A DNA stretch of 63,970 nt, the filler included, from Dimargaris cristalligena (Eukaryota), in the NCBI GenBank assembly GCA_003614675.1. It is 6 parts of 6 records of this genome, joined end to end, with 100 filler letters (N's around TTAATTAATTAA, not from the genome) between each part and the next. Parts side by side here need not be neighbours in the genome. Positions count along the whole stretch, not along the records: positions 1 to 10,887 come from ML003140.1; 5 more parts are not named here. One strand, written 5' to 3'. A model generated the notes under the pieces. The model was not told the DNA's origin. It saw only the letters and a list, made by a program, of their open reading frames with translations, and ran no database searches. A program made the position numbers and the translations under genes. Shown here piece after piece: positions 1-54,863 of this stretch (its first letter is position 1; each line of letters begins with the position of its first letter).

Positions 1-267
1 CCCCCTTACTGCCACCTCTTGGAACAGCAAGTCTATCATCACCTTTCCCTTTTATCACCTATCTTTTCAAATAAAGTTCAGTTTTCAAGGATTTGATTTC
101 AGTTCTTTATACCCCTTATATATCCCTACTACTTATCCTTTATTTAGTTAGTACTGTACCCTATATCTAATACTAGTAGCCCACTTGGCAGAGCCTAAGC
201 CCTTCTTACCATTAGAAGCTTATCCTTGGGACTCTTAATGGGCTAAGAGTGGTTAACCCTGGTGATA
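1..267 (+). mobile_element. Partial LTR, variant subfamily: shared 3' end plus a distinct upstream segment
   Basis: About 113-267 matches the 3' part of the 20746-21304 LTR (tactagtagccc...agaagc...gactctt...ctaagagtggttaacc). 1-112 is roughly 90% identical by eye to the reverse complement of 54661-54761. Confidence 0.75.
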
Positions 268-333
268 ATTATTAAAAGGAAAATAATTTTAAGACTATTA
301 ATAGCTAACTTTAATATATTAAGTTAATAGGTG

Positions 334-921
334 TATTGCCCAGGTTATCTACTCTTAGTCTATTAAGAGTCCTGGGGATAAGCTTCTAACAGTAGGTGGG
401 GCTTAGGCTTAGGCTAAGCAGGCTACTAGTATTAGGTATAGGGTACAGTACTAACTAATAAAGGTCTAGGCAATTAGATTAATGCAAGAGATATGCAGTA
501 GATACACTTACTGGTCAGTATAAGAGGGATAAGTATACATAGAGTTTATTGGGTAAACTAAGGGGTAATAATAAGCTGAGGAATCTAACTGGTCCCAAGA
601 GGGCCTAGTTATATATACACAGGGATAACTCACAAGAAGAGGCCCTAAGGGAAAGTACTACTAGACTAAGGTATAGGTAAATAGACATCCAGGATGGCTT
701 CATATCAGGAAGACTCTCATGGAAACTGGAAGAGTCTTTAGATCAACACAAGGAGTGAGTAATGCAAAGGGGCAGAGTCCAGAAGGTGGGGGAGGGTTAT
801 ATGATAAATGAGGATCCTATAGTACAGGGGGTGACCATGGGATAGTGGATATGGTATAATAAGGCCTAATATGGGTGGGCAATCACCAGGTCCTGATTAA
901 GTCAGATTAGGAGAGCTGGCA
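334..921 (-). mobile_element. Solo LTR, degenerate and transition-mutated
   Basis: Colinear over its whole length with the copies at 5615-6196 and 6206-6786. Ends are tattgcccagg and gagctggca (consensus tgttgccc...gggtgaca). No CpG seen. Confidence 0.85.
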
Positions 922-3900
922 AATAGTATAAAAATGGTAATATAATGTGGTTAATTATTATGAGTTAAAATCCTCCATTGATTTCAATTGTCTATAACAT
1001 TATTAATAATGACCAGAAATATAAACAGAAATGATAAATTGGAAAGCTGAAAGAAAATAAGAATTAGCTCATAAAACAAACTCACACTTCTAGCCCCAAG
1101 CTGTTCCCATAGAATCAACTCATTCATCATCTGTGGACCTTGAATTCACCTAAAGTATGACTACTTCTTGGATTAGCAACTACCATCAGTGCTTGCATGG
1201 CCTTGGTCTAACTACCTATGGCAGTACAACTATTAGCACCTAGTATTTTTGGAGTTGCTCCCATCAAGTGGTGCAGTTTTGGGATAGGTCCAGCAGAAGA
1301 GAGGGGGTGTAGTGGTATTCTATCTAGTATGCTTTTGGTAATGAATGCCTTGGAAGGCAGGTTGATGTAATGGTAGACTGGGGTCATTATTCATCTATGA
1401 CTGGGATTTCTAGTTGACTGGCCCCTGGTTATTGTGTTCCCAAAACATGCTATAATCAAACAAGGGTGGTAGCATGTTAGTCTCTGTAGGACTGTGGTTA
1501 GTCATCAGTATAGATGTAACACTACCATCTCCAGGAAAAGCAGAACCAAGGGACTCATGAATCAGAAGCAACAGATCCTAAAAATGAGGAGTCACCCTGG
1601 AGTATTGTGCAACTGAGGAGAATCCCCCCCCCACAGTGTTCTCCCCCAGGGTGGCGACCCACCAATTTACAGAGGGGTTCACCCAACCTCCCTAATGGAA
1701 GAGGATGGCCTTACCCCAAAGACACAAGAGCAACACCTCATCTCAGAAGAATAATGTATATCACCCAAATGGCAAACTATGGTCCTGTGTCTTTGAATAA
1801 GATATTTGTGATATTATTTCTCTATATCATCTGATTGAGTTATTCATTTAGTTACCTACCCCACTCGGTCTCCTATTTATTTCAAACAGTTCTCTAGCCC
1901 AACTCAACCTATTTGGCTGCATGATGATAGGGTCTACAATAAGTAATACATATAATTAGAGATAATTATGAGTAAAAAGGGAGCGTCCTTAATTCATGTA
2001 GGGGAGCGGGGGATGAGATATAAGTGAATTCATATGGCCATACATTTGTGCTGTTAGTATACTAGCTCCTAATCGACCGGGTACTATCTCGGCTATATGT
2101 ATAAGGTTGGGTTGTTACAGTGTAGTCCTGAGTGGTGAATCGTCCCCTTGGTTCCCTTTTAATCTAGTGTTCCGATTGGCTGTAGAGCTACCATTCAGGG
2201 AATGGCCACTGCATAAAGAACCCCTGTTCATCCTCCTCAATGTTAAACTCAAACTACAAAAAAATGAATAAAAAAAAAAGACCGAGGACGCAAGGGAACA
2301 ACCAATCAGCCTATTGGGTGCGGTGATGTTGGCCTTCATCCGTCGTTGCCTTTGGCTACTTTAGGATGGTTGGAAGTTACCGACCTCCAACCGAGAAGTC
2401 CCAATGACTATTTCGGTACAGTTGCCCAATGGTTTCCCTTTTGACTCTTCCCTATTATTTTATAGTGGTGGTCGAGGCTTCTTGTGGGGGGACAAATGGC
2501 CCCTCTTTGGCTATACCTACCTATAGCGGACCTTTGCAACTATGTGGGTTTACAGCGCTTTTAGTATTCCCCCCCATAACCACCCAGCTAGCCATTTGCA
2601 AGGCACCATTGCCTTTACCGCCAAGTAGCCAAGCGGATTATTACAGTGGTTATCCCTTTTTGACTGCCGCAGATACTGCCCTAAACTTCGGATACTCCCC
2701 ATTAACCACCACGTATGGTCAGAAACATCCATATTACACAAAGTACGGGATAGTATAATCAGAGATATGGAATCAGTGGGATGCAGGGAATGAATTTCTA
2801 ACAGTTGGTAAGTGGTGAGAGGTATTAATATAAAGGACTTCACTTCAACGCAAGTCGCTAAAGGGTAGCATGTATAAAAAGAGTCACACATAAATGTTAG
2901 AAATGTGCCACCTATTCCAAGGGGAACCAAATAGTAATAGTTACACGGGCCTGAGATAATCGGAAGAATTGGCTAAGTAGGCTATCGATACGGGAGGCAG
3001 GTACCCTAATGAGTTACCCTAGATGGGATACTGACTCTAGCCATTGGGAACTTGGTTGAATATCGGGGGGTGTATATTAATCACATCTCCCTTAGCTATG
3101 AGACATCTGGGAAGTCATCACTTAGTAATTCACTGCCCTGGTCTATGACCTAGTTGATAGACCAAATACCCTAGCCTGTCCAGTGTGGTCCCCATATGTG
3201 GCAGCTATTTTTAATAGTTAAATACTAAACGTATACCCTTCAGTTAGCATCACCCGGTCAGTAGCTTCCACCATGTGCATTGGAGCTCATCCACCGTAAT
3301 GTGTAATGTAAGAGATGCTTCTCTATCACTGTCCTATTTTGCTTTGCCTCCGAAGTTGGGCTGGTTACATATAATAATTGGCATACTATGTTACTGGCAT
3401 CCAGTGTTGAGAACCAATTATATAGTCCTCCTCCAACCCCCTTTTTTCTATTTACAATGGGTATCTTGGGGTTTTGACATTCACCCATCTAGTTTCATTA
3501 ACCACACCCGCACAGGCATGGGGCGAGGACGACAGAGGCTATTCCACAGAACCCAAAAAATGATTTTACAGCCAATAATTCAAACGAGTCTGCCATAAAT
3601 AGACTGGAGTGGCTGATATTAAGATTTCTCGAATTCCATGTCATACACCACAGTAATACAATATCATAATATTCTCTTGAGAGGTCATAGTGGTATCTGG
3701 GCCCTTTAAAGGAGAGATGTGGTTGTGAAACGGAGTAATCTTAGCAGCGATGGAAAGTGTTTTGGGTGGATGCATAGGTCCACAAGGCAAGCAGCACATA
3801 CTCTTGCAACAGCCGTATCACCCACCAGCAACTGCGGCTTAGTGGTACAGCCTTCTGGGAATTAAGGGAGGAAAGGGGGGTTGGTGAAATCCGCCACAGG

Positions 3901-4407
3901 ACCTCAAGAATAGGGGTGGGATGAAACCCATTTACATGGCGATGGTGATATTCTTGTAAGACCGCCACCGAACTCTAATAGGCAACTGAGCACACCATGT
4001 ACCCCCATATAAATCCATATGAGGACACTGCAATTTTTTAGTACAACCGGCCTATGCTTAACAGTAGATCCGGAGGCAAAGAGACTGCAGCGTAATGTGC
4101 CTTGGGAACTATCCAAGCTCATTAAAAAACACCAGTCGAATGAGTGGATTTCTCTTTTTAAACTGTATAAATAGACTCAGTTTCGCCTCCATATTCAACC
4201 GCCATCCACTTCACCATCCACTACACTTGGTATATACTTTGGCCAGTTTCACTGCCGGTAAATTCTCCATTACACTAGCTCTTTATATCCAACGACTCCA
4301 CCAGACTATTCCTTCTTTTGTACATATATAGTTTCTTGACAGGAATCCCCGCCTGCCTGACTTTACTGGCTCTAGTTTTTCGCCCACCACTGTCTATCTT
4401 CAACAAA

Positions 4408-4878
4408 ATGCGTCCCTTTGGAGTGACATACCTGCTCATCCTAAGTGCACTCAACTTCAGCCACGCCTCCGAGCAGAATAACCAAGACGCTGGCCTCAAT
4501 AATTTCATCGATGCTAGCAGTCCTGATATTATTGATGAGGACTCGGCTATGCATCTAATCCATGGGCCCTTGTTCCGGGACGCGACATGGCAAGACATTG
4601 CCAAGTATATTGGCCAAATTGATCATAATAAGCTGGCCTCGTACATCAACTTACACGAACACTTCATGGGTGACCAGGATATTAGACAAGCCGATAGCAA
4701 TATACAGGACACATCCCTCGACCATATCATTGGAAATCATGACGAATTAGCCAGCGCGCACCACCGGATGGAGGCCAGTCGTTCTGGCTCGGTAAATGGT
4801 ATCCGCCCACCCCTCCAGATGCCTCTACCTTATCCTCCTAAACTGTCGTCCCAGAACCCTATCGTAGGGCAAGCATAG
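4408..4878 (+). CDS. Orphan secreted protein, probably truncated or pseudogenised
   Basis: ATG at 4408 gives signal-peptide-like MRPFGVTYLLILSALNFSHA. The frame continues past the TAG at 4876-4878 (EGIPQSIYEQPKVYH*) before meeting an opposite-strand repeat. Confidence 0.55.
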   Translation: MRPFGVTYLLILSALNFSHASEQNNQDAGLNNFIDASSPDIIDEDSAMHLIHGPLFRDATWQDIAKYIGQIDHNKLASYINLHEHFMGDQDIRQADSNIQDTSLDHIIGNHDELASAHHRMEASRSGSVNGIRPPLQMPLPYPPKLSSQNPIVGQA

Positions 4879-4949
4879 GAAGGCATCCCCCAGTCCATCT
4901 ATGAGCAACCGAAGGTCTATCACTAGGTTTGTTGCTGTCTCTTGGGGCG

Positions 4950-5545
4950 GAAGAGACACTGGACATCGGTTTCGAGGGGCCAGCACCTGGATGGAACATG
5001 GGAAACAGTCCTTCGGCCAAACGGATTGGGTCGGAGCTATGTTCTGAGTTGGTGCTGGGATACGGTGGGAATAAATCCTTGGGGATGTAGGCTTCATGTC
5101 CATCGTCAGCGCTAGGCATTGGGTGAGCCACGGTGGCTGCGTGTTAATAAATGGTGTGAAATGAAAAGTAAAGAAAAATAAAGATGGATTTGACTTCCAC
5201 TAGAAGTCATCAGCTGGTGAAGTTAAAATATATATTAATTCTGAATAATAAAAACTTATCTTAAAGATAACTTAATAGTACTAAGAACTGACTACAGGAC
5301 TATAAAACCACAGAGGGGAAAACTAGTCAAGTCTTCAGGATTAAACACTATTCTGAATAACTGAAAGTACTTAGGAATTGGAATTACCTTAGATTTACTG
5401 AAGTATTCATGATAATTAATATAAGGATAAATTAAAAAATGAGAGAATTTGGAAGACTCTATTACTGCATCTCTTCTTCCAATAAATGGACTTTCATACT
5501 CTTACTTATTATCATATAGAACCTTTTTGGATTTCATGAGGATAG
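4950..5545 (-). mobile_element. Repeated retroelement-like leader plus short gag-like ORF fragment
   Basis: Nucleotide and peptide similarity to 43894-44640 (shared PPYPSTxSEHSSDPIRxAEG and aagttatctt...gataagtttttattattcagaat). Lies just downstream of the 3' end of the 5615-6196 LTR. Confidence 0.6.
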
Positions 5546-5614
5546 ATAAGGTATGACTAAGTGAAGTAAAAATGAAATAAAATATAACTAAATTTATTAG
5601 AAAATGTTAGCTAC

Positions 5615-6196
5615 TGTTGACTGGGCTATCCACTCTTAGTCCATCAAGAGTCCTGGGGATAGGCTTCTAATAGTAGGTGGGGCTTAGATTCAACCAAATA
5701 GGCTACTAGCATTAGGTACAGGGTACAGTACTAACTAATAAAGGCTACTAAATATAGGTATAAGTAAGGGATGTGTAGTGGGTATACTTACTGGTTAGTA
5801 CAAGGGGATAAATATATATAGAGTTTATTAGGGTAAACTAGGGGGTAATAATAAGCTGAGGAATCTAACTGGTCCTAATGGGGCCTAGTTGTATATATGC
5901 AGGGATAACTCCAGAGGGAGGTCCCAAGGGAAAGGTAATACTAATTAAGGTATGGATAAATAGGCTAACCAGATAGCACGAGTATCTGGAAGACTCTAAT
6001 GGTAAGTGGAAGACTATTTGGATCAGTACTTGAGTGATTAGTGTAAAGTATTGGGGTCCGGAAGGGGAATAGTTATATGATAAATGATAATCCCATAGTA
6101 CTGGGGGTAACCATGGGAAGGTTAATATGGTGCTATAAGGCCTAATAAGGCTAGACAGTATAGTATTTAGATTAAGGTAGACTAAAAGGGCTGACA
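5615..6196 (-). mobile_element. LTR
   Basis: TGTTG...CTGACA termini, 582 bp, colinear with the other copies. Confidence 0.85.
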
Positions 6197-6205
6197 TATA
6201 TCAAC

Positions 6206-6786
6206 TGTTGCCCAAGTTAACCACTCTTAGTCCATCAAGAGTCTCGGGGATAGGCTTCTAACAGTAGGCAGGCCTTAGACTCAGCCAAGCAGGCTACTAG
6301 TATTAGGTGAACCACAGTACTAACCAAATAAAGTAAGTATGGTCAACTAGGCAAGGGACATGCAGTAGTGTACACTTACTGGTCAGTACACAGGGAGTGA
6401 GTGTATATAGAGTTTATTGAGTAAACTATGGGGGGTAAGAATAAGCTAAGGAATCGAACTGGTCCCAAGAGGCCCAGTTATATATATGCAGGGATAACTC
6501 ACAAGGAGAGGCCTCAAGGTAAGAAGCTACTAACTAAGGTATCAATAAAATAGGTGTCCGGGTGGCTTCATATTGGGAAGACTCTTATGGGAACTGGAAG
6601 AGTCTTCATATTACTGTAAGGAGTAAGTGGTGAGAAGAACCAGGGCCAGGAGGCTGGGGGTTATATCATAAATGAGGGTCCTATAGTACCGGAGGTGACC
6701 ATGGGATAGTGGCTATGGTGCAATATAGCCTAATATGGGTAGGGCAATCATCGGGTCCTGATTAAGTCAGATTAGGGGGGCTGATA
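6206..6786 (-). mobile_element. Solo LTR, tandem to the previous copy
   Basis: Begins tgttgcccaagttaaccactcttag and ends gggctgata. Starts 9 bp after the previous copy. Confidence 0.85.
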
Positions 6787-6855
6787 TTAACCCTTATAAC
6801 TAATTTCAATTAATATGATGAATTACTTGAGAATATTTCTATACCTTTTGGGAAG

Positions 6856-7428
6856 TATTAGCCCATCTAATCTACCTTAAACTAATTAGTTAAACTCCTA
6901 ACTATATTAGGCCCTATCATACTATATCAGCTCTCCCATGGCCATACCTAATACCATTAGATTATCCTTTATTATATATAACCTTTCCCCTACCTAGACT
7001 CTATCACTTTATACTAATCACATATACACTAATCTAAAGTCTCTTCCAGCTACTATTAGAGTCTTCCAGATACTAGTAGCCATCTAACCAGCCTATTTAC
7101 CTATTTATTAGTCTTAGTAGTATTCTCTCTTGGGACCTCCCTCTGTAGTCATCTATATATATATATAATTAGGCCCTATTAGGACTAGTTAGATGTCTTA
7201 GCTTATTCTTACCCCTTATTTATCTAATAACCCCTATATATACTCATTCCCTTTATACTAATTAGTAAGTATACTCCTTATATATCCCTTATATATCCCT
7301 ATTTCTAAGCCTTTATTTATTAGTATACCCTACCTATACCTAATACTAGTAACTACTTCACTAAGCCTACTGTTAGAAGCCTATCCTCAGGACTCTTAAT
7401 GGACTAAGAGTAGTGAACCCAGGTAATA
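6856..7428 (+). mobile_element. Solo LTR, heavily hypermutated
   Basis: Termini TATTAGCCC...GGTAATA correspond to TGTCAGCCC...GGCAACA with transitions. Zero CpG and very TpA-rich. Inverted relative to 6206-6786. Confidence 0.8.
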
Positions 7429-7603
7429 CTGAAAGCCATTAGCTTTAATTGGCTTTACTTAATACAACACCACTTACTTTAATATAATAATTTAAAATAC
7501 TCTATAGTAAAGTACCCGTAGATTCAACTATAGCCTTATAAACCTGGGCCTAATGACCTTACATTTAATATAAGTAACAATGCAAATTATTTAAATGTAG
7601 ATC

Positions 7604-9927
7604 TCAAGGCAGCTCCACTATGACAGGTTTATATTCATCGTCATCATCCTCATCGGCATCACCACCTTGATAGGAATATTCATTGTTGGCATTTGATACC
7701 TCATTATTAGGGCCCCCCTTATTAGTCGCCTGAGTTAACGGGAGACCTTCACCAAAGCGCCTTTGTAAGAACTCACTGAAGCGGACGAGTTTGGCCATTA
7801 AAAGCGGGGTCGGGTCAGTCACCTGGAGCCTGGTGATGTTGCGAGTGAGTGTCTATTCATTATTTCATTCCGAATCCCACAGCAGGGAATGAATAAATAA
7901 AGGTTGGAGACATTGTCACCAATGGATGGAAAGTAAGGAATAGAATAATCATGTTAGTATCACTTGGTTGATTTTGCCATATACATGGAAAGATGAGTGG
8001 TGTGACCGCACGGGATTCATAAATCTGGGGAAGAGACGACCCAGTACTATATATATATAGATAGATTGGCAAGACCGCCCCAATTTTACGAAATTTTGGA
8101 ATTAGCTTACCTTCAATAGTTGGAATACAAAGTTGTCCACCATAATGACATCAGTAAAGAAGTCTTCAGGGCATTCATTGAGTTGGTGTTGTAGAGCATC
8201 TGCATCCCCATCAGTACCAACACGAGGATCCCCCATAAATAGACGGATATATAAACGAATATGTAAAGTTAATTAAAGGTGGATAATTTTAAATCTGGTT
8301 AGAAAATGGCGAATATACATAGCCCACGTTACACTTTGCAGGTATGTTAGCGGTTGGGAATTAAGAAGGTAAGAGTAATATCCACAGGTGAACCTCGGAA
8401 CCACGGATCAACCCAAGGCTGTATAAGTGAGATCCTAAACCTACCTATAAAATTAGGATACAGGTCACTAGAGTACTTAGCAATAGCTTCCGAGGATAAG
8501 CAGAGAAGATGAATCAGGGCCTTCCACTGTTCGAATCCGGCGTAGTTTTGCCCCATGAGTAAACAGATAAATCCAAGCTGTAATTCCCCTAGAGGCTGTC
8601 GGTAATCTATATATGAGACCGCCAATTATTATAGAACAAGCAAAAGCAGAGGCGATGGAGATGGAGGTGTAAGTATCACTAGGTATTCATTGAACAGGGC
8701 CAGCCTGTATTCGGGGGAAGGGGATGGGCTAGTGATACAAGAGACTCATAGGTAGCTTACCGTTGGACCAGGCCGTATTTAGCAAATGACTTAGTAGCCA
8801 ACTCTTGTCCAGACTGTAGCGCGTTCGCTCTTCGCCTTGACTCTCGGGTGGAAAAGACCTTTTCAGGTCGATCATGGTAAATGGAATTCCTGAGGCATCG
8901 CGAATGGCGCCTTCGTCATAGGGACCCCCATCACTACCGGAAATCACCCGATCCCTGGGGAGCACCCGGGTCAGTAGGGCCGGTGAAACATAGCCCGAGA
9001 GCTTGAGCCAGGTTTGGTAGGAGTGGGGAGGATCAAGGGGGTATGCCCCTAGGCGGGGATCGAATGACCGGATATCTAAGTGGAGGTGACAGACAATAGT
9101 GGTTGGTGGGGATAGGGGGGAGGGTGATTGGAATATTCGTAATGTTTAAACATCAACCAACAGTGACGCCTGAGTTGGCTATACCAGTATATCGAGGTTA
9201 TAAGTAGCCTGCGTTGTGAGAACAGCAGAGTGAAGTGTACATTCTAACGGGTGCTTACCGTCGGCATAGCGGCGGCGTTGGTCGTTATCGAGGTGGGACT
9301 CGGGAAACAGCTGTTCGTTGACGGGGTCCCAAACCCTGACCATAACCTGAGGGGCAAAGGGTGTGTGTGAGTGGATGATTTCAGACATATATAAAATAGA
9401 GCGGCGGCGGGTCAGATCCTATAGCTCCATCGTTTATATATATATATATATATATATATGCATATGCATCTACTCCGTTGACCTGGTATACTTTAATGAA
9501 TCGTAAATATCTATTGGATGATAGTAGTGAAAGGTCTGAAATTGCCATCCCAAGCAGGTACTTACCTCGCCGGCCCGGAAATTATGAAAAAAGCCAGCCC
9601 GTGACTCGGTCGTGTGGGGTTGTCCCGAGCTGAATCGGATTAGAAGAGGAAGCAATGGGTATGTACATATAAAGAGCTGAGCCGCATTAGTATGAGATAG
9701 CAGTCATGGTGGGACAATTCCAGCGGGAATAATATATGCTTATGCACCCCTTTTACTTACTTGTAGTAAACGAAATGGACGCCGGGGGGGATCAGTTTAA
9801 CGCCCTGGAAGCGCGGGCCAGTGGTCCACATGTGAACGTCGATGCCAAACTCGAGGTCTTTGGGGGCCTCAAGAATGAGGACAATGCCACCCTTGTCGAA
9901 CAGAAGGTTGGCGGTCTGCTGATCCAT
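7604..9927 (-). CDS. AAR2: AAR2, U5 snRNP assembly factor (about 7 exons)
   Basis: Family motifs across exons: EFGIDVHMWTTGPRFQGVKLIPPGVHFVYY, RAGFFHNF, LGAYP, RTRYSLDKSWLL, LGELQLGFICLLMGQNYAGFEQWK, QQLNECPEDFF, C-terminal DDDDEYKPVIVEL. GT-AG introns; approximate exons 9927-9761, 9630-9565, 9347-9259, 9076-8762, 8608-8444, 8199-8111, 7821-7604. Confidence 0.93.
9436..9459. repeat. (TA)n microsatellite in an AAR2 intron
   Basis: Direct reading. Confidence 0.9.
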
Positions 9928-10833
9928 GAGGTCGAGGTGGCGGTGGCTATTTGGAGCGAACTGAAGAACTAGGGGGGGACAAAGCGGGTGAAGTAGAGAT
10001 GGCAATAGAAAGCCTACTGGAGTGTCAACTGGGTCGAGTGGCTGCTCTACTTTACCAACCCGGCTAACTAAGTTAGTCACCCCAAGCGCCCAGTGCTGTT
10101 TTAAGTAATAGGCAAGAGCAAGGTGGTTGGGCTCTACATTCCAATGGTGCACCCCATTTGCAACCAGGTCCAATTGGCCACACTTTAGATCATCAATTGG
10201 CAGCTCTTTGTACTCTCAGCAGAATTCCCCTTATCGGAACAGTCTTTGATCTCCCCCCCCCGCGCTAGCTCGTTAACTTATCATGGTTATCCGCCTAACG
10301 GGTAGTCTGGCGCACCTCGATGGACGACTCGGCGGTTCCAAGAAGATTGGAAATACACCACAGTACAGTGGATCAGTAGACGGGCTGCCACTCCATTTCT
10401 CTTACCTCCCCTATTATACGGTGCACAGTTGGAATGCACTGCTTCGATTGGGCCAGTCTATCCAGGTCAGGGGTAGCCATGGCCAAGTGGGAAAGAATCG
10501 GAGAGAATTAGCGAGACGCGCATATGCGTGGAATGGTATATAGGAGAGAGTGTGCTAAACGGCATTTGGTGAAGGAAGCCTTCTCCCCCTTAGCTGCGCA
10601 TTCCCGCCACTATACGCGTTGTTGCGGCCATCAACACAACGCGTCCGCTATAGAGCCACCCATACCACCCTGTCGGAATACAAGGAGGGAAGGCCTCCTG
10701 CGCCATCCAAATGCTCCCCCCCCATCTCTCCTGTGTCCCCTATCTCCCTTTTTATAGCCTAAGCTCGGCCGCCTCTCTGGGTAACAGGCACTTCGACCCT
10801 CCCTCTTCCGTTGTCGCTCGCATTATAACCTTC

Positions 10834-10836
<3 letters not shown>

Positions 10837-10887
<51 letters not shown>
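10837..10887. repeat. (CT)n microsatellite at a contig end
   Basis: About 25 CT units running into the gap. Confidence 0.95.
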
Positions 10888-10987
10888 NNNNNNNNNNNNN
10901 NNNNNNNNNNNNNNNNNNNNNNNNNNNNNNNTTAATTAATTAANNNNNNNNNNNNNNNNNNNNNNNNNNNNNNNNNNNNNNNNNNNN
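10888..10987. other. Artificial contig-joining spacer (N44-TTAATTAATTAA-N44)
   Basis: The same 100-nt spacer occurs five times; the 12-mer places stop codons in all six frames. Confidence 0.97.
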
Positions 10988-11324
10988 GGTAAGAATAAGC
11001 TAAGGTGCTAACCGGTCCCAAAGGGGAGCCCGGTTATATATATGCTGAGGATGCCTCCAAAGGGGAGGTCCTGAAGGGGGAACTACATAATGGCTAACAA
11101 TAAGGTGGACCGGCTGGCCCTCAGTTGAGTGGGGCTTCCATGGGAATTGGAAGGCACTAAGATCACCTATGAGTGATTAGTGCGAACTCCGGGAGGCCTG
11201 GCCGGTTAAGGGGATATTAATGATGCTCGGCCTTGTTAGGGCCGGGGGGTACAATATGGTGCTATACAGCCTGATATGATGGCGGTCATATCGGTTGGAT
11301 TAGGATGGATTAGGAGGGGCGATA
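10988..11324 (-). mobile_element. Partial LTR cut by the contig start
   Basis: Reverse complement of roughly the first 340 bp of the 20746-21304 LTR; ends gattaggaggggcgata. Retains CpGs. Confidence 0.85.
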
Positions 11325-13599
11325 TAAAACATCTCTTTTTTCATTCTTCTGAACTGTACCGGCAGTTTTGCCTACAGTTGTCTTAATTATTCTTGAGGTT
11401 TGATTCTACTATCTCTTTGATTATAAGGTATTTACGCCTATTATTATATTAGTCGCTCTGCCACACCACAACAAGAAAATGAGTTGTTATGAAATTACAC
11501 CAAATGCCTCTAAAATCACCAGGTCCTGGCCCTCAAGTTTGTCAATGACGTCAGGTCCCGATGATACACTCAGTCAACTGATGTTTGTACCCGTGATGCC
11601 ATTATTCCTTGGGCCTTGATTAAAACCAACAGACCTCGGCCTCCTCAGGAGGATATCCCTTGAACTCGTTTTTATCAAATAAACACTTGGTTATTATCTT
11701 ACTTACAACTCTGATTTTATACTTAGGCATTTATAACCATTGATATAACTATATTATATTAAGCTCAACCCGAAAATAACATAGCATGGTTGTCATAAGG
11801 ACCTGGGTTCTTCCCAGGGTCTGTTTATTAAATTATATGGTAATTTATTAGTTTGTAGTTGCCAGTGATTTAATTGGCCTTTAGAAATGGATCGACAGTC
11901 CAGATTACGACCTAGACGACCGATTCTATTTAATTGCTGTTGCAGCCATAGTTCAATTAAACCCATGCCTTGACTAAGGTTATGGTTGGTACGGTGAAGG
12001 GCAGGCGTTAGGCTTTAACAGAGATTTTTGGAGGCTTGATCAGAGGGACTCGACGACCTGGATGGGGGGGGGGTATTACCTTGGCAGACGAATGAATGAA
12101 AAATTATGCCTTCACGATTCGGAGTGCTCAGTCGGTAGAGGGAAAGAAGAGAGATGCACAGGGTGCGGCATTTGAATGACCGTTGGTATAGGATTCACAA
12201 TCGCCCCTTTTTTCCTTCGTGAACGCGTTATTTTTTAATAATAGAGGGACCATTGTTTATATTTAATTAAGGGATTCTCAGCGGACTGTGTGTCGATTCT
12301 GATGCCACTCGGTTTGGAAGGTTTACCCTGACTGGAATTAGGGGGAAGGTGTCGACGTGTTAGCCAATCACACCTACTGTTATTGTTTTCGAATAGTTTT
12401 CGGTAAGCTGATGGGCGGAGATTACTCGTTAAACAAAACAAAGTAGTGTTTACAATTGGATTGTTTGGGAAGGGAAGGGGGGGAGAGGTTGGATTGCGAT
12501 TTAATCAGCGCAACAGTCGATGAATGAAGGAAGGGGAAGGGTACAATAACAGCGTAGCCCGCGTTCCGCTCATTGGAAGGAGGAGGGTGGATGGTCCGAA
12601 TGGCACATGAAAGACCCACGGCAGTGTCCCACCTCAATCACCTATGCAGGGTTGATTTTGCCTACTGGGTTTAAAGACTCGGTTAATGCGCCATGGAACC
12701 CGCGTACTCTCTCGGTGTGGATTAGCTCAGCTGCAGAGTACCCGACCGGCCTCATTTTTTCACCGGATGACCACTCCACGTGGTTGACCCTCTAGTCCCG
12801 TGGTTTTTCCCCGACTCCAACCTCCCGGGATTGTACTCGCCACGCATTGTGTAAGTCGTTCTAAGGTGTTTAGGGATAGGCGGCGAGAATTCTCGGATCA
12901 ATTGGGTCATGGAGGGAATAACCAATGAAGAGGGAACGGAAGAGTAAATTATAAAAAAAATAAAGGGCGGTATTTAGACTAGGCCAAGAAGGGTAATCCG
13001 TCGGAATCCAGCTTGACGGGACCGAGGTAGGGCAGTGTGGGACTTTGGCCTCTGAGGACGATCCCTCCTCTCACCCGCGTACTGTTGGGGGTGAAAAAGG
13101 ATCCTGTTGATTGGCATGGCCCATCGTTGGTGGGATTTCACTGTTGCGAGTCCGCCGTGTACACTTACTGTTGTTGGGGTTATACTATCGAATCCGCCAC
13201 AATCAAGCACAGAGAGCGAGCGAGAACGGGTGCCTGAAAAAGAGAGAATAAAGAGAGAAAGAGTTAGAGATGGAAAGCCAGGCCTCGTCGTCACCTTTGC
13301 TCGTCCTACGGTCGACGACGGCGCCCACCATTAGGGGATAGTTCTCTCCCAGGTTGGCCCACGCATACAGACAGACATGTTTGCGCATATAGAGGTGTTG
13401 TCTCCACGCATATAGGCCTCCGATGACCGCTCCACGGCAATCACCACTCAATTGGGGCATACGAGCTGGCCCCGCATCAACCACAGTGGGCTTCGCAGGT
13501 GGTGTGTCACTCTGGCGAAAGGGTCGTTGGTGTCAATCCCCCTACTCCAACTCTCACTCCCTTTCTCTCCTGGTGGGCTGTATGCACGCCACTGGAGTC

Positions 13600-13680
13600 T
13601 CTGTCTCTCTGTATCTCTCTCTCTCTCTCTCTCTCTGTATATGCTCGTGGGGGAGAAAACCCCGTCTCCTTTATAAAGCT
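13600..13680 (+). promoter_or_regulatory. (CT)n tract followed by a TATA-like element, possibly the promoter of the ankyrin gene
   Basis: CT repeats at about 13600-13637 and TATAAA at about 13672, followed by ~1.5 kb of pyrimidine-rich sequence up to the ATG at 15201. Confidence 0.35.
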
Positions 13681-15200
13681 GCCGTATGGTCGCTTTCGGC
13701 CCCCCAGGGTTTCTTTTTCTCGATGAATCGTTCGGTGTTGTATTAATGAATCTACTTCCCTAGGCAAGGTGTTTGGTCGGTCTGTGGGTCCCCGCTTCTC
13801 TTTCAATATTATTATCGTTATCATTATTATTATTCGTCGACATATTCGTTCGATCGGTGTCGTTCCAGCTGCTCCCGTCTTGGCAAGTCTGGCCCCATTG
13901 ATTGGTTGCTCCTGGCAGTTTATTTACCTTTTGACTTGCAAGTCCGTCGCTTGTTATTCGTTCGTTTCCAGTGGCCTGTCCCTCCTTCCCTCCCCACTCC
14001 CAGGTCCCCGTGCGCGTGTGTCGCGCTCTCCCTCTGCTGTTCCACGGCGTCCGCTATTGGTACCACACCACCTCCGCTCCTGCCCCTAAACTTTTTCGCC
14101 CCCCTTTCCCTCCCGCCGTTTTGTAAGACCGTCCGTTACTCGGTTAGTGGCTTCAACCGCTCCCATCCGCTCCCTTCCATTGCCGAACGCGTTCCTATTA
14201 TTCTCTTGCAATTCCAATCCCTACTCCCTCCTACTGGTCTCAAGCAACTCACTACTAAAGTCCACCTCTATAATCCCTTTTGCTTCTCCGCTCACTTGTG
14301 TCGCTCTTATTATATATATATATATATATATATAGCTGGTACGCTCAATCTACCCATCTGATTTGGCCCTGCTCATACTCTTCCCCGTGGCCTCTTGCCT
14401 GCTGGCTGCGCTCCATCTGCGAAGCTGCTGTATTAACCTATTCACGCTTCTTCTGCAACAACCCCCTCCCCCTTCTCTTCTTTGCTCCTCTTTCCCTCCG
14501 TACCGCGTGTGTCCCACCTCACTAGTCAGGGCACTGTTCTCGGATCGTCGTTCCCACTTCGTCATTAACCGCCGTTATTTACCGCCTTGCGCCTCCTCTA
14601 ATACTCCAAGCCTCCTCTCTTTCAGCCGTTTGTCCCTTGTCACGTCTTTCTTTCCTTCGCTCTTATTATTATCCCACTCAGTCCTTCCGAGCTTCGGCTA
14701 CCCTTTCTTTCTTTCATTTAGTCTCGTTTCCCCTGTCCTTGACCCTGCCGCCATTGGTTCCCAGTACCTTTCGCCCCTGGTGAACACCTCTGCACACTTT
14801 TATATTCCCCTTTCCGTTCCCCCACTTGGGCCTTTTGCGCACCTGCTCTTTGTTTTGATTCAGCTGTGGACTTTGTCGTCCAAGTGCTCTGTATCAACGA
14901 CCCTATTCAGTCCAGGTTACACTTCTATTTAGACACCATCCCTCTTCCCTTACGACAGACTGTTCATTCTTTCTACCTTGCTTTACTCGAGCGCTTTAAG
15001 TCCGCTGAATTACTTTATTCGTTTATGCTTTCTGGGTTAACGCCTGGCCAGACCTAACCGCCCCTTTCCGTTATCCTGTGCCCTGTGCATCACCGTCCCC
15101 CACCCCCCAACTGTGCCCGTGGCTTACTGTCGTACCAGTCCTTTCTTCAAACAAACGAACAGTTGGCTAGAAACCTAGACCCCACCGTTCACTCTGTTAT

Positions 15201-18200
15201 ATGCATTCCGCTCCCGCGCCACCATCGCGTTACCCACCTCTCATGGGTGGGTCGGGTGGTTTGGGTATCGGTCGCCGTAAGGCACCTACTGTTGTCCCCG
15301 CCGGGCAGGTTCCCCCACTAAAAATGATGACCACTCAACTCATACAGACCCCCGAAGCCAAGTCGGCCAATAACGCCTACCGCTGTCTATCCCCCACAGT
15401 CGTACCCTTCCCTTCACTTTCGTTGGACGAGGAGGCCCGGCTTCTCTCCGCCCTTCAGTCCAGCTCCCCCAACAGCGAAGTTGCGTCCGCCTTTCCCGCC
15501 GAATTCGTTGCTGACTGTAGTGCCCCCGCGTCTGACGCTGTTGTCCCTAACCCAGCTCTGACCATTGGTCGGAGAGCGCGCGCCTACTCGCTTCCCGTCG
15601 CCCAGGGCCCTCCCACCGTTAATAACGGTGGCCCAGTAAACTCCGTGGGCCCCGTCCAGGCTGGTCCTGCTGCTGCAACTGAACATCCTGAACTTATAAA
15701 CCCTAGTGAGGGAGGTACCGAGTCCATGGGCCCACAGCGACCTGGGGGCCCCGCCCGCGCCCTGCGACGCCGCTCAGTGCTGCATTCATCCGCCCCCAAT
15801 ATTGCCAGTATTTTAACTACTCCCGCCACGGGATTCGTGCCAGGACAGTCTGCGCCGGTGTCAGTAGACCCCCCCGCTTTCCCCCTGGCCCCTGTGGCCA
15901 ACATGGGTCAGAGTGATATAAATACAGTAAACTCGCCCGCCTACTTGCCTGCGGCTACGGCTACCCCAACGCTTACTACTCCTTATTTAGCTAATTGTAA
16001 CACCCCTCCCCATTTAATTACCATTAATTTAAACCGCTCCGTCTCATCCCCCAGTAACGTAATGGCTTCTCCGGAAACTCCGACCCGCCCTTCCCTGTTT
16101 AAGCGAAGCTCGGTATTGAGCCGTCTTAAGCGCAATTCGACCAGTCCTGCCCAGCCGGCCGTGCCTTCGATTCCCCCTCTGGATTATTCCCCGCACCAAT
16201 ACTATTCGTACGGCGAATTTATTGCCAACGATATTCACCCCCGGTTCCAGCGTCAGCAGCTGCGGGAATTACACAATTTAAGTAAGCAGCGCTCTGCCCC
16301 ACCCAGCCCACCCGCGTCAGTCCCCCAAACCCCTTCTACTGCCCAGTTGGTCGGGCGGACATCCCCTCCTCGAGCCGATTCATTGGGCAGACGGGCCAAC
16401 CGGCGCACTTGGCACGCTCCCTCTGCCGAAACGCTTCCAGTTATCGACGAACTTGCTTCCGACGCCGCCGCTGGTTCTAGCCCTTTAATTAATCGAGCCC
16501 GCAGCCTTTCCAATAAAGGGGAGTACTCCCCTCGGTCGACGACCGGCCTCAGCTTCTTGGATGATGTCCCCAGCCGCAAGTCCTCCCTCCCCGTTGGCCC
16601 CACGGCCGGTAAACCCCGTCGAGCTCCCCGTAAAAAGATCCCCTTCGTTGGGGCGTTATCGGCCTACCGTCGCGACGGATCCCGCGCCAAACCGACTTTG
16701 ATTATGACGCTGCACCGGCTCAAGTTGGCTGTCCACGACTGTATTCCCCGTGTAGCCTTGCGCATCATTGATAAGGATCTCCCTGACATTCAGTACGCCG
16801 CTGAACTATATCCCGAGAGTATTAAATGGATATTCCTGCGGGCCTTAGCCAATCGACTCGAATCCGTAGCCCTAGCCCTTTTTCAACGTGGATACCCAGG
16901 CGATGTGAACGAGTCCATTTCACTGCGGGCCCCGGTTGCTTTCCCCCACGAAAGCCAGGAGTTCTCGTCTGACCCGAGTAGCGGTAGCTTTTCCTTCGCG
17001 TCGCTGACTGGTGCCGATAAGCGCCGGCGCTCGAGCTCCTTACGGCGATCCTACGGCCCTGATAGCGGAATCTCAACTCCATCAGGTCTCCGCCATACCC
17101 TTCTTCCCTCGTTTTTCATGGTTGCTGTTGCATTTCGCATGGCTGCACTTGTTCAGGCGATGGTGCCAAAGGCCAATCCCGACTGCATTTGGCTCGGCGT
17201 GTCTTGTCTTCAGTTACTTTGCCTCAATCGCAAAGCCCTCCCCGTTCCCGCCGAAGGGTTTAGTAATTCCACCCTGCCGCAGGTAACCCAGCTGCGGACA
17301 TTGACTGGCGAATATTCGGCCGAACAGAGGCCAATCTTGGTCCTGCGTCACCTTCTCCTCCACATGGCTACGAAGACCAGTCGTACTATGGGCCAGGGTC
17401 AGTTGAAGGCACTGTGTCGCATCCATGCCGCATCAGGTAACTCCACCGTCCCATCGAATTTGGCCTTGGAGCCGCCATCCTTGAACTCGCCGAACCGACA
17501 AACCGTAGTTGACATTGATGATGCCATTTCCACCACTTCTAATTACACTGTCAATGAACCCGACGAGGAGATGGGGCGTATTCGATCTTCGCTGTCGACT
17601 GTCAGCCTGGATTCTGATGCCACCGTGTCTACGTCCTGTTCGATTATCTCCGAGTCTATGGTGGCCTCGGGCGGAGTAAGTCAGTCCCTCGCCCATTGTG
17701 AAGACACGGGATTTACCTGTGGCCATGGTATTCATGAACCGGGTATATGCGTAGAGCCCCACCCCTTCCGGGGTCCGTCGGGCCCTGAGATTCACCGCCG
17801 TCCCTCACAATTGCCCTCGAGTGACCGAAGTAGCCGAATTACTTTCCAAGTCAGTGCCAGCACCTGTTCCAGTAGTAGCAGTAGCGCTACCATTTGTCTG
17901 GAGAGTTTCACCAAACAGCGGCATCTAACATCGGTCGGAAACGGTAATCATACCTCGAATTCCCTCTATGACCATCAGCTACTTAATTTGCAAGACCTGG
18001 CTGAGAAGCTGACCTCTGACCGGACCGCCTGTTTGCTCTTTGAATCCGCACCATTTGTCCCTGATGACGGACCGTCGTTAGCAACCGGCCATCCCAGTGG
18101 TCCTCAGGCATTCCGTACTCAGTACTCGGGAATGCCCATGGTCTCTGGTGGGTCTATATCTCCTTCGGTCATGGAATCCTATTCTCTCTTGGACTTGGCT

Positions 18201-19535
18201 GTTATTCCACTTGGTTCGGCCTGTCCCGGGAGTTCATCGATAGATACCATTTTTGTGCAAACACTTGCGGAGGCCCTGGATGACCCTGTCCTGAATGAAA
18301 GTTTTCAATGCCTGACTCTACAGCAGGACCTCGATCTCAGTTTGCAGTTGGTTAAGCGCGGAGTCAGCCCCCAGCGCCAGCGAGATCGGCAGGGTAATTC
18401 CCCGTTACACTTGGCGGCCCGGGCTGGCCACCTTGACCTTGTCGTATTTTACCTCTGGCTCGGACTCGATCCCAACAAGGCTGGCCAAAACCTATGGACG
18501 CCGCTTCACGAAGCCATGAGCTGGGGCCATCACAATGTGACTCGTCAACTCATTACTCATGGGGCCCTGCTTTCAGCTGCAAATGTCCACGGTCATACGC
18601 CCCTGCAGCTGGCCTTGCTTTTTGGACATAGCGTGGCTGATATTGAATCCATGATGGATATTCACCACTTGACCAAATCTGATGTGGCCAATATCCATTC
18701 TATTTTCGACCACGTTTCAACCACTCTTGGCCTCCCTAACCCCCTTATTGTACCCAACAAAACCCCCATCCACTCCACTAAGCTGCTTTCAGCCGAGAAT
18801 GGTTTATGCGAGTCGACCGGCGCCCCATACAGTTGTCCTAGTCGGCCTGAACGTAACCAGCGCCTTGGAGGCAAGGCTTTCCCGAGTGACCATTACGGAG
18901 GGACAACCGAGTCCCCGTACCCCAAAACCAGTAGCCGCTGGTCAATGTCTGAGCTGGGGTCTAGCAAGGCTCACTTGGCTGAGATGTATGCTCAGATTGT
19001 CACCCGGTCTGAACGCGACCCCCGTCACCACCAACCTTCGTTGGTCAGCCTGCATGAATTTTTAGCCGGTAGTATTAATCTTGAAGCAGCGAGCCCAACT
19101 ATTTCTTCCAAATGGGACGATTTGAACCCGAGCGATGTCCCATCCCCGCGCTCATCCTCGTTCGATTTATCGCCCAGTCAACACCAGTTGCCCCTCACGC
19201 CTACCTCCCCCTCCTCCCGACGCTCGGCCGACGCCACTTGGGGACATGCCTCGTCCAGTTTGTCCACTGGCTTACCCTTCTCGACCGAACGGATAGAGAC
19301 ACTAGCTGCCCAATTGACTGTCCTGGCCCGTCGTTCTACGTCCAATCCGCTCACTGCCAATGGTTGCCCCAGTGATACCACTAGTAGTATCCCGAGTGAA
19401 GATGGTTTACTGGATTCCCCTGAGGCCAGTGATGTGATGGCTAAGGCTAATTTGGAATCACCCTCTTCTAAACTAAAGAAATTCAAACGCTGGTCGAGCG
19501 TGGAGTTGAAACGGTCGTTGTTCTCCTTCCTTTAG
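15201..19535 (+). CDS. Intronless 1444-aa Ser/Pro-rich protein with about three ankyrin repeats
   Basis: 4.3-kb ORF with ankyrin consensus motifs GNSPLHLAARAGHLDLV, WTPLHEAMSWGHHNVTRQLITHGA and GHTPLQLA; the rest is largely low-complexity. Confidence 0.88.
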   Translation: MHSAPAPPSRYPPLMGGSGGLGIGRRKAPTVVPAGQVPPLKMMTTQLIQTPEAKSANNAYRCLSPTVVPFPSLSLDEEARLLSALQSSSPNSEVASAFPAEFVADCSAPASDAVVPNPALTIGRRARAYSLPVAQGPPTVNNGGPVNSVGPVQAGPAAATEHPELINPSEGGTESMGPQRPGGPARALRRRSVLHSSAPNIASILTTPATGFVPGQSAPVSVDPPAFPLAPVANMGQSDINTVNSPAYLPAATATPTLTTPYLANCNTPPHLITINLNRSVSSPSNVMASPETPTRPSLFKRSSVLSRLKRNSTSPAQPAVPSIPPLDYSPHQYYSYGEFIANDIHPRFQRQQLRELHNLSKQRSAPPSPPASVPQTPSTAQLVGRTSPPRADSLGRRANRRTWHAPSAETLPVIDELASDAAAGSSPLINRARSLSNKGEYSPRSTTGLSFLDDVPSRKSSLPVGPTAGKPRRAPRKKIPFVGALSAYRRDGSRAKPTLIMTLHRLKLAVHDCIPRVALRIIDKDLPDIQYAAELYPESIKWIFLRALANRLESVALALFQRGYPGDVNESISLRAPVAFPHESQEFSSDPSSGSFSFASLTGADKRRRSSSLRRSYGPDSGISTPSGLRHTLLPSFFMVAVAFRMAALVQAMVPKANPDCIWLGVSCLQLLCLNRKALPVPAEGFSNSTLPQVTQLRTLTGEYSAEQRPILVLRHLLLHMATKTSRTMGQGQLKALCRIHAASGNSTVPSNLALEPPSLNSPNRQTVVDIDDAISTTSNYTVNEPDEEMGRIRSSLSTVSLDSDATVSTSCSIISESMVASGGVSQSLAHCEDTGFTCGHGIHEPGICVEPHPFRGPSGPEIHRRPSQLPSSDRSSRITFQVSASTCSSSSSSATICLESFTKQRHLTSVGNGNHTSNSLYDHQLLNLQDLAEKLTSDRTACLLFESAPFVPDDGPSLATGHPSGPQAFRTQYSGMPMVSGGSISPSVMESYSLLDLAVIPLGSACPGSSSIDTIFVQTLAEALDDPVLNESFQCLTLQQDLDLSLQLVKRGVSPQRQRDRQGNSPLHLAARAGHLDLVVFYLWLGLDPNKAGQNLWTPLHEAMSWGHHNVTRQLITHGALLSAANVHGHTPLQLALLFGHSVADIESMMDIHHLTKSDVANIHSIFDHVSTTLGLPNPLIVPNKTPIHSTKLLSAENGLCESTGAPYSCPSRPERNQRLGGKAFPSDHYGGTTESPYPKTSSRWSMSELGSSKAHLAEMYAQIVTRSERDPRHHQPSLVSLHEFLAGSINLEAASPTISSKWDDLNPSDVPSPRSSSFDLSPSQHQLPLTPTSPSSRRSADATWGHASSSLSTGLPFSTERIETLAAQLTVLARRSTSNPLTANGCPSDTTSSIPSEDGLLDSPEASDVMAKANLESPSSKLKKFKRWSSVELKRSLFSFL

Positions 19536-21864: not shown

Positions 21865-21964
21865 NNNNNNNNNNNNNNNNNNNNNNNNNNNNNNNNNNNN
21901 NNNNNNNNTTAATTAATTAANNNNNNNNNNNNNNNNNNNNNNNNNNNNNNNNNNNNNNNNNNNN
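21865..21964. other. Artificial contig-joining spacer
   Basis: N44-TTAATTAATTAA-N44. Confidence 0.97.
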
Positions 21965-54861: not shown

Positions 54862-54863
54862 AC

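Follow-up and report, generated by a model that had tools for sequence, protein, structure and literature searches.

[quoted passage not shown] To our knowledge, current opinion accepts it only for ascomycetes and closely related fungi, while certain basidiomycetes give weaker signals of a RIP-like kind. The preference of RIP in Neurospora is for CpA ahead of CpC and CpT, and single RIP events can give a strand-wise clustering of hits. RIP of this type depends on a cytosine methyltransferase of the RID/Masc1 type, takes place in the sexual phase ahead of meiosis, mutates every copy that is long and similar enough, including both partners of a linked pair, and yields transitions far in excess of transversions. 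The hypermutation of Pucciniomycotina has TpCpG as its target. It affects transposons in Microbotryum and other members of that group, as cited in passages of two recent reports (PMC12210899, PMC11105155).

A kingdom-wide k-mer screen of 2025 detected signatures of repeat-directed mutation in hardly any fungi but ascomycetes and concluded that this group is unique in that respect (PMC12543289). The screen was restricted to scaffolds above 50 kb, and fragmented assemblies with contigs like those considered here would therefore fall outside it. For Zoophthora radicans (Entomophthorales), the accessible sections of an eLife report of 2024 describe a composite-RIP-index signal in 1-kb windows, with 24.2% of the genome above 0, together with the authors' own caveats (PMC11105155). 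The first-pass annotation of the DNA treated here had proposed a little-described defence outside Dikarya; the placement stands, and "little-described" holds only in part, given the composite-index signal in those sections of the Zoophthora report. The literature searched held no paper connecting Dimargaris with RIP or with DNA methylation.

The window, that is, the whole stretch of 63,970 nucleotides that was analysed, is a chain of six distinct contigs, about 10.9 kb long, with artificial N/TTAATTAATTAA spacers between them, and for that reason linkage is judged only inside one contig. The assembly is a fragmented one, with contigs of this size that break in repeats. An early-diverging host other than one of the Pezizomycotina, as the annotation had supposed, is borne out by two genes and by taxonomy: a LYS2 ORF in the window has 100% and 91% identity to Dimargaris cristalligena proteins, an AAR2 exon on contig 1 finds its sole match, at 61%, in D. 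verticillata, and a taxonomy look-up assigns the D. cristalligena lineage to Kickxellomycota, which places the host outside Dikarya.

Eight copies of a repeat of about 580 bp, with TG...CA ends and 54-79% mutual identity, lie in the window on contigs 1, 2 and 5. They were located by two BLAST searches of the window, one with copy G and one with the window itself as query, which returned the positions first given for them (Table 1). The family has TGTTG...CTGACA termini, as in LTRs; inspection by eye found no matching target-site duplication. No Pfam domain of RT, integrase or gag was found in 18 ORF pieces from both strands of the interior (922-5614), and the ESM Atlas gave nothing usable for its 199-aa ORF. 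The longest ORF on the plus strand, which is the element's own orientation, is at most 199 aa, and the minus strand has 63-103 stops per frame. The depth of the interior in run X2 equals that of unique flank, thousands of run contigs align to the LTR segments, and 35-46 run contigs with diverse flanks align at the 5' edge of copy D (6206). An exact-motif scan of metagenome contigs yielded 0 further copies. Copies A and B are arranged head-to-head, with a palindrome centre near 300, while D starts 9 bp after C and lies tail-to-tail with E at a distance of about 70 bp.

Table 1. Copies of the LTR-like repeat and adjoining features, in positions of the window
Feature	Position	Strand	Remarks
Element X part	1-108	-	joins truncated LTR copy A; contig 1 starts inside X
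LTR copy A	109-262 (14/109-262 by BLAST)	-	5' ~190 bp of LTR only; 0 CpG; moderate CpA-to-TpA load
LTR copy B	336-921	+	full length; 0 CpG; moderate CpA-to-TpA load
Interior between B and C	922-5614	+	single-copy by depth; many stops; CpG decay without TpA gain
LTR copy C	5615-6196	+	ends TGTTG...CTGACA; 2 CpG; moderate CpA-to-TpA load
LTR copy D	6206-6786	+	5 CpG; practically without CpA bias
LTR copy E, hypermutated	6856-7428	-	573 bp; GC 33.5%; 0 CpG; CA+TG observed/expected 0.43
LTR copy F	10988-11324	+	3' 337 bp, truncated by contig 2 start; 11 CpG; unmutated
LTR copy G	20746-21304	-	full length; GC 49.9%; 12 CpG; least mutated
LTR copy H + element X	54483-54761	+	5' ~180 bp of LTR; 0 CpG; contig 5 ends inside X

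The contig-1 locus carries a hypermutation signature of RIP type that is restricted to repeats. It can be read from the polarity of the changes, their CpA context, their symmetry between strands, their restriction there to repeated segments, and a load that differs greatly from copy to copy. Copy G served as reference and outgroup, and copy D as an internal control within the contig-1 cluster. The clearest case is copy E: against each of the other full copies, 51-62% of CpA/TpG has become TpA, compared with changes at 6-13% of CpC/CpT, and the reverse change amounts to 2-6%. Strict dinucleotide counts from G to E give 35/65 for CA/TG to TA and 15/173 for CpC+CpT (odds ratio 12.3, p = 5.7e-13); an independent pairwise aligner gives 38/64 and 10/162 (odds ratio 22, p = 4e-17). 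Over both alignment methods, the pairwise odds ratios for E range from 12 to 22, with p from 1e-11 to 1e-17. The four example strings quoted in the first-pass annotation are all visible in the alignment.

On a tree built from transversions, (((B,D),(C,E)),G), which was used to polarise the changes, the E branch carried CpA-to-TpA changes at 24/42 sites, with 12/72 at CpC and 10/81 at CpT; comparison of E with an ancestor proxy gave 27/37, 12/67 and 8/60, respectively. By both counts the CpA rate in E is 4-5 times the CpC/CpT rate. The same branch holds 62 transitions, 49 of them GC-to-AT, versus 32 transversions, and is the longest by transversions (10-19 on the others). The two strands are alike, with CA to TA at 19/32 and TG to TA at 16/33 from G to E, and this symmetry excludes editing of single-stranded cDNA. 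A runs test detected no strand-wise clustering of hits. The neighbouring base makes no difference on either side; sorted by the one at the 5' end, the counts are ACA 3/4, CCA 10/14, GCA 6/8 and TCA 7/9. The excess of C-to-T at CpA that had been suspected at first reading thus emerges from context-specific counts on both strands, beyond what CpG decay and background account for.

Two other kinds of hypermutation were considered and rejected. TpCpG-type hypermutation does not fit an excess at CpA with a 5' base free of preference, and for APOBEC-like cDNA editing the expected plus-strand G-to-A asymmetry is absent, the load being symmetric and free of strand runs.

Copies A, B and C have the same bias as E in weaker form, and D, F and G have none. 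On the B branch, changes fall at 10/48 CpA, 7/80 CpC and 2/83 CpT sites (CpC+CpT 9/163); on the C branch the counts are 6/42 for CpA versus 6/153 for CpC+CpT, and on the stem shared by C and E, 6/44 versus 4/157. From D to C the bias is 21/65 versus 11/179 (p = 7e-7), and from H to A, CA/TG to TA reaches 9/30 versus 7/74 at CpC+CpT. The D branch, with 18 transversions, has 4/48 at CpA, 5/80 at CpC and 8/83 at CpT. The negative controls, G to F (1/39), F to G (2/36) and G to D (9/68), gave no significant bias. Copy D also runs against the earlier suggestion that mutation is worst where copies are closely linked: with C and E as its immediate neighbours, it was spared. F and G share a contig, with 9.4 kb between them, and both are untouched.

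The CpA load does not follow a clock: copies that are alike in transversion age differ greatly in it. Transversions per site are similar in the pairs F/G (32/333) and C/E (55/564), and the CpA-to-TpA differences number 3 and 40; between D and E the per-transversion CpA rate, derived from the branch counts, is about 5-fold apart. Transition/transversion ratios among the window copies are 1.0-2.5, with a maximum of 3.8 in short partial copies, and the plentiful transversions indicate that the copies are old. Run contigs aligned to the window showed 546 transition places and 170 transversion places in run X1.

Other repeats were left alone. Element X is a different repeat, young, very abundant and little diverged, with a summed contig depth about 2,600x that of unique DNA. 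A and H share one LTR/X junction, where the X part is 91/96 identical versus 119/161 in the adjoining LTR part; X beside both copies is 95% conserved, retains 11 CpA/TpG in 96 bp and is unmutated. A 150-bp MITE-like family likewise keeps its CpG and lacks the CpA-to-TpA signature. With these two repeats spared, as well as D, F and G, an efficient, ongoing, genome-wide RIP is not indicated.

The compositional evidence separates two processes. Among 500-bp windows, those in which an observed/expected (o/e) value of CpG near 0 coincides with elevated TpA and reduced CA/TG lie nowhere but over the contig-1 copies, and the CpA-to-TpA signature is confined to the repeated segments and spares the adjoining single-copy DNA, as seen at this one locus. 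The other process, the loss of CpG, can be told apart from it and extends into the single-copy interior, where TpG/CpA rise: over 922-2000, CpG o/e is 0-0.14, CA+TG o/e is raised to 1.12-1.26 and TpA is normal at 0.95-0.98, the extreme lying at 922-1500 (CpG 0, CA+TG 1.26). The LTR copies, with CA+TG o/e of 0.43-0.85, are beyond what CpG-methylation decay alone can produce. The first-pass annotation had described both contexts as affected, and its range from CpG-containing copies (F and G) to one with zero CpG (E) was reproduced, the counts running from 12 in G to none in A, B, E and H. An AT-rich background composition was rejected as an explanation: unique AT-rich intergenic DNA (GC 0.30-0.35) shows normal values, 0.88-1.01 for CA+TG o/e and 0.33-0.83 for CpG o/e, against 0.43 and 0 in E. 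That said, the family is intrinsically TpA-rich, with a TpA o/e of 1.44-1.48 even in the unmutated F and G. RIP indices computed from composition alone therefore exaggerate the effect, and it is on the alignment counts that the case rests.

On balance, we lean towards the view that some of the LTR-like copies underwent a repeat-restricted, CpA-preferring C-to-T hypermutation, superimposed on a separate loss of CpG. Some copies of this multi-copy repeat would have been hypermutated after insertion, with a signature the same as that of Neurospora-type RIP. The process would act on double-stranded DNA, with CpA as the preferred site of the C-to-T change (TpG to TpA when read from the opposite strand), and a separate, slower loss of CpG, which resembles the usual deamination of methylated CpG, would span the adjoining single-copy DNA of the transposon island. 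A cytosine-modifying enzyme, either a DNMT-family protein or a deaminase, may have been targeted at repeated DNA, probably in bursts like those of RIP. The evidence comes from a single locus and eight copies, of which essentially one is heavily mutated. No RID/Masc1-type gene lies within the window. A broader proposal, that Dimargaris has a repeat-directed, CpA-specific, RIP-like C-to-T mutator, episodic on long repeats in methylated transposon islands and representing either a pre-Dikarya defence or an independent invention without RID, is advanced here only tentatively.

It is also conceivable, though in our judgement unlikely, that the LTRs carried non-CG methylation with a CpA preference, for instance of a small-RNA-directed kind, and then decayed by slow deamination of 5-methylcytosine, with no duplication scan and no burst. 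The island-wide CpG decay is of the methylation type (CpG o/e 0-0.14, with TpG/CpA raised in 922-2000), which makes cytosine methylation of the region plausible, and a CpA-to-TpA signature that follows LTR boundaries is compatible with LTR-targeted methylation. The mutated copies are rich in transversions, hence old, and would have had time for slow decay. DIM-2-type methyltransferases acting in all contexts are moreover placed outside Dikarya, in Phycomyces, by two reviews (PMC7862722, PMC13297926). Against slow decay stands the very unequal load at similar transversion age, as between D and E (4/48 vs 24/42) or between the pairs F/G and C/E; the spared copy D sits inside the same island, and DNA methylation in D. 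cristalligena is not reported in the literature searched.

That the pattern reflects no special process, only the neutral decay of an intrinsically TpA-rich family whose copies are old and dead, E being simply the oldest, seems improbable. The long transversion branch of E, the high TpA o/e already found in F and G, and the modest transition/transversion ratios are what such decay would give. However, decaying copies should approach intergenic values (CA+TG o/e about 1.0, CpG o/e 0.3-0.8), from which E is far removed, and neither the 4-5 times higher rate at CpA than at CpC/CpT nor the roughly 5-fold gap between D and E in per-transversion CpA rate fits this course. Finally, an artefact of amplification or assembly damage, of a contaminating ascomycete contig already with RIP, or of alignment error is highly improbable despite fragmented contigs of about 10.9 kb that break in repeats: contigs of three runs from two studies have 0 differences over 6579-7143, a stretch that takes in the initial 288 bases of copy E, and over 2168-5656 there are likewise 0 differences in run contigs of two studies; the AAR2 on contig 1 matches D. 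verticillata alone and the family occurs on three contigs; and the two alignment methods give the same picture, with clean negative controls.

If a clean CpA-to-TpA signature in Kickxellomycota is true, RIP-like mutators either predate Dikarya or evolved more than once. If the bias fails genome-wide, the locus still serves as a warning that composition indices can read as RIP what is due to one hypermutated copy or to a family intrinsically rich in TpA.

The repeat-restricted hypermutation favoured here shares some features with described systems and differs in others. C-to-T hypermutation of transposon copies is also seen in Microbotryum and other Pucciniomycotina, fungi that lack RID, but the target there is CpG preceded by T. 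Decay of CpG-methylated transposons, of the DNMT1/DNMT5 type, resembles the CpG loss with TpG/CpA gain in 922-2000 and the CpG loss in the contig-1 LTR copies, but it cannot yield the loss of CpA/TpG with gain of TpA seen in those copies. Zoophthora radicans, like Dimargaris, is of zygomycete grade, lies outside Dikarya and has a compositional signal resembling that of RIP; it belongs to a different subphylum, and its evidence is index-based, whereas that from Dimargaris is polarised, alignment-based and context-resolved, but comes from one locus. From RIP in Neurospora crassa and other Pezizomycotina, Dimargaris differs in being one of the Kickxellomycota, in having spared D, F, G, element X and the MITE-like family, a comparison limited by their age and their similarity at exposure, and in transitions that do not greatly exceed transversions, its copies carrying much ordinary divergence besides. 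Shared with RIP are the change from C:G to T:A with a CpA preference on both strands, the confinement to repeated segments with an end at the single-copy edge (at the one locus here), and the heavy, uneven load per copy with CpG also lost. The rank order of contexts in Dimargaris, CpA and then CpC/CpT, resembles the Neurospora preference.

Copy E, one of eight copies (A to H) of an element of about 580 bp found in the window by BLAST with the least degraded copy and by self-comparison, carries a strong directional excess of C-to-T change at CpA. GC content is 50-52% in copies G and F and falls to 33.5% in E, while CpG counts run from 12 in G, 11 in F, 5 in D and 2 in C to none in A, B, E and H. 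Dinucleotides were counted strictly, with the second base required to be unchanged in both copies, so that CpG decay in two lineages cannot pass for CpA change. On these counts, CA/TG in the reference copy G became TA in E at 35 of 65 sites, against CC to TC at 10/101 and CT to TT at 5/72 (odds ratio 12.3, p = 5.7e-13); change in the opposite direction, from TA to CA/TG, was seen at 2/100. The strands were affected symmetrically (CA to TA 19/32, TG to TA 16/33). When D, B or C replaced G as reference, the values were 51-62% at CpA/TpG versus 6-13% (odds ratios 11.6-13.9), and relative to an ancestor proxy, defined by agreement in at least three of B, C, D and G, E had changed at 27/37 CpA/TpG, 12/67 CpC and 8/60 CpT. 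An independent pairwise aligner gave 38/64 versus 10/162 for G to E, and the comparisons that served as its negative controls came out clean, at 1/39 for G to F, 2/36 for F to G and a non-significant 9/68 for G to D. There was no preference for a neighboring base before or after the changed CpA/TpG dinucleotides of E, nor any strand-wise clustering of the CpA hits. The first-pass annotation had proposed this excess from four example strings; all are present in the copy alignment, and with two aligners in agreement the excess is real and statistically strong.

Positions of the repeats, genes and joined pieces within the window
Feature	Position	Remark
Contigs 1-6	1-10887, 10988-21864, 21965-32831, 32932-43793, 43894-54761, 54862-63970	six pieces
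Spacers	10888-10987, 21865-21964, 32832-32931, 43794-43893, 54762-54861	five, form N44-TTAATTAATTAA-N44
Copies A, B, C, D	109-262, 336-921, 5615-6196, 6206-6786	
Copies E, F, G, H	6856-7428, 10988-11324, 20746-21304, 54483-54761	F and H partial
Interior	922-5614	between B and C
Element X	1-108, 54665-54761	joined to A and H
MITE-like pieces	51360-51512, 53633-53791, 58678-58829, 63093-63231, 32733-32831, 32932-32986, 43738-43793	seven
Palindrome 1	within 137-464	A/B head to head, arms 76% identical, center near 300
Palindrome 2	within 6216-7418	D/E tail to tail, arms 66% identical, center near 6817
LYS2 (alpha-aminoadipate reductase)	23323-28158	minus strand; long ORF, Pfam domains
GC-rich ORFs	33139-34329, 34821-36014, 37739-38560, 40397-42091, 45549-46820, 57409-58170	six, 253-564 aa
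(CT)n microsatellite	10826-10887	~60 bp, reaching the end of contig 1

Unique AT-rich intergenic DNA on the same contigs (GC 0.30-0.35) has observed/expected (o/e) ratios of 0.88-1.01 for CA+TG, 1.11-1.21 for TpA and 0.33-0.83 for CpG, whereas the values for copy E are 0.43, 1.79 and 0. Local background composition was rejected as the cause, since such unique DNA lacks E's dinucleotide pattern. When the sequence is scanned in 500-bp windows, only those over the contig-1 copies combine a CpG o/e near 0 with a high TpA and a low CA/TG; a few further windows stand out in the composite index, but these consist of GC-rich coding DNA whose CpG is normal. Even in F and G the TpA o/e is 1.44-1.48, a sign that TpA is intrinsically common in this family, so composite RIP indices would mislead if used alone.

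The interior beside copy B (922-1500) has zero CpG, a CA+TG o/e of 1.26 and a TpA o/e of 0.98, which, judged by composition, is the classical footprint of methylated-CpG deamination. A homologous stretch on contig 5 (44277-44637), 66% identical to 4949-5274 on contig 1, retains many CpGs (o/e 1.29) at sites where contig 1 has TpG or CpA. CpG decay comes without TpA gain in the interior and with it in the mutated LTR copies, so that two processes are superimposed. The earlier claim that both contexts were affected holds in that CpA and CpG both changed, with different reach: the CpG decay, presumably by methylation-type deamination, covers the whole transposon island, and a separate CpA-directed process follows the boundaries of the multi-copy segments.

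A tree from transversion distances joined the copies as ((B,D),(C,E)) with G as the outgroup (four-point sums 90 versus 119 and 121), and changes were assigned to its branches by parsimony. The CpA bias is absent from the D branch, and copy A is biased relative to H (9/30 versus 7/74). These counts indicate that several lineages were hit by the process, each independently and to very different degrees. Nor did it run as a simple clock, because F/G and C/E are matched in transversions per site (32/333 and 55/564) yet differ by 3 versus 40 CpA-to-TpA changes.

Changes per branch of the copy tree
Branch	CpA to TpA	CpC to TpC	CpT to TpT	Transversions
E	24/42	12/72	10/81	32
B	10/48	7/80	2/83	10
C	6/42	3/72	3/81	19
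C+E stem	6/44	2/79	2/78	10
D	4/48	5/80	8/83	18

A heavy CpA signal is seen in a single copy of a single locus. Copy D, 9 bp away from C and some 70 bp from E, was nonetheless spared, and F and G, 9.4 kb apart on the same contig, are untouched. Element X, a separate repeat, adjoins the truncated copies A and H, in each case at one and the same position of the LTR; between the two loci its parts are 95% identical (91/96), against 74% (119/161) for the LTR parts, and it retains 11 CpA/TpG in 96 bp. By summed contig depth, nothing else on contig 1 is as abundant as X; each of the two contigs bearing it breaks within it, and it may be a young element with site-specific insertion in the LTR. A MITE-like repeat of ~150 bp, with similar ends (ATATGGGAGA...CACCCATAT) and copies 70-93% identical, shows no CpA-to-TpA signature in its seven pieces, three of them at contig ends, and has kept its CpG. 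The sparing of D, F, G, X and the MITE-like family suggests that a RIP-like process, if it exists, works or worked with low efficiency or under limits of length or similarity, or else has ceased to act.

The ~580-bp element begins with TGTTG and ends with CTGACA (in the orientation in which B, C and D are plus). Of the contigs of public runs placed on contig 1, 35-46 per run switch to unrelated AT-rich sequence exactly at position 6206, where D has its 5' edge, the picture expected where a mobile element ends. The 2,934 to 5,030 contigs per run that align at 80% or more, nearly all over LTR segments, mark the family as very abundant. Pairwise identities of 54-79% and transition/transversion ratios of 1.0-2.5 (at most 3.8, in partial copies) show that the copies are old. 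The 4.7-kb interior is single-copy by depth in one sequencing run (X2). Each minus-strand frame is broken by 63-103 stops, the longest plus-strand ORF does not exceed 199 aa, and 18 ORF pieces from the interior contain no reverse transcriptase, integrase or gag domains. The element's identity as the LTR of a coding retrotransposon is putative. Between the palindrome arms lie spacers of extreme AT content (GC 0.16 and 0.24).

The pieces of the window are whole contigs (~10.9 kb) from a fragmented D. cristalligena assembly, not one chromosome stretch, and because they are artificially joined, inferences from distance or linkage across the spacers are void. The LYS2 ORF has its best matches in two D. 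cristalligena proteins (100% and 91% identity); other Dimargaritales follow at 65-71%, with Zoopagomycota-grade fungi next. In a second D. cristalligena assembly, LYS2 is annotated on a 73-kb contig as a 2680-aa protein with extra PPR-type domains, probably a fused gene model. One exon of AAR2, on contig 1 together with the hypermutated copy E, has Dimargaris verticillata as its sole database match (61%). The NCBI lineage is Kickxellomycota, Dimargaritales, and the suspected position outside Dikarya is borne out. At an E cutoff of 0.001 the six long GC-rich ORFs had no Pfam match and are presumably lineage-specific Dimargaris genes.

On balance we lean toward a repeat-restricted, double-strand, CpA-preferring C-to-T hypermutation of RIP type, superimposed on ordinary CpG-methylation decay. 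The main rival, non-CG methylation targeted to the LTRs and followed by slow deamination, would account for the signature's boundaries and for the age of the copies; it fails on the very unequal load among copies of one island, and we consider it rather unlikely. Plain neutral decay is improbable, failing on both composition and dinucleotide context. An artefact is hardly credible, given the controls and the zero differences among contigs from three runs and two studies over 2168-5656 and 6579-7143 (the D/E junction, reproduced in all three, and half of E), which exclude amplification damage or assembly error there. The first-pass interpretation is partly supported: it keeps its signature and its host and loses its linkage argument, that degradation is worst in linked copies: D was spared between C and E, and comparison across contigs is uninformative on linkage.

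No relevant paper came up in our literature search on Dimargaris in combination with RIP, DNMTs or DNA methylation, though supplementary tables may list the species. According to the relevant passages of the Entomophthorales eLife paper, RIP has been observed only in Dikarya, and composite-index windows above 0 cover 24.2% of the Zoophthora radicans genome, with caveats given (PMC11105155). A screen of more than a thousand genomes, published in PLoS Biology in 2025, saw AT-rich k-mers enriched in repeats almost only among ascomycetes, after scaffolds below 50 kb had been discarded (PMC12543289). In reviews of fungal methyltransferases RID is assigned to Ascomycota, and their pertinent sections hold no data on Zoopagomycota or Kickxellomycota (PMC7862722, PMC13297926). 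The signature in the window does not match the TpCpG hypermutation cited for some basidiomycetes. Under RIP, transitions far outnumber transversions and all sufficiently long and similar copies are hit; the LTR copies depart from the first rule, and as to the second, D, F and G are free of bias and may or may not have been similar enough when exposed. Membership in RIP proper is not claimable, but the signature matches Neurospora-type RIP in its context, in its symmetry between strands and in being restricted to repeats, and may be called RIP-type.
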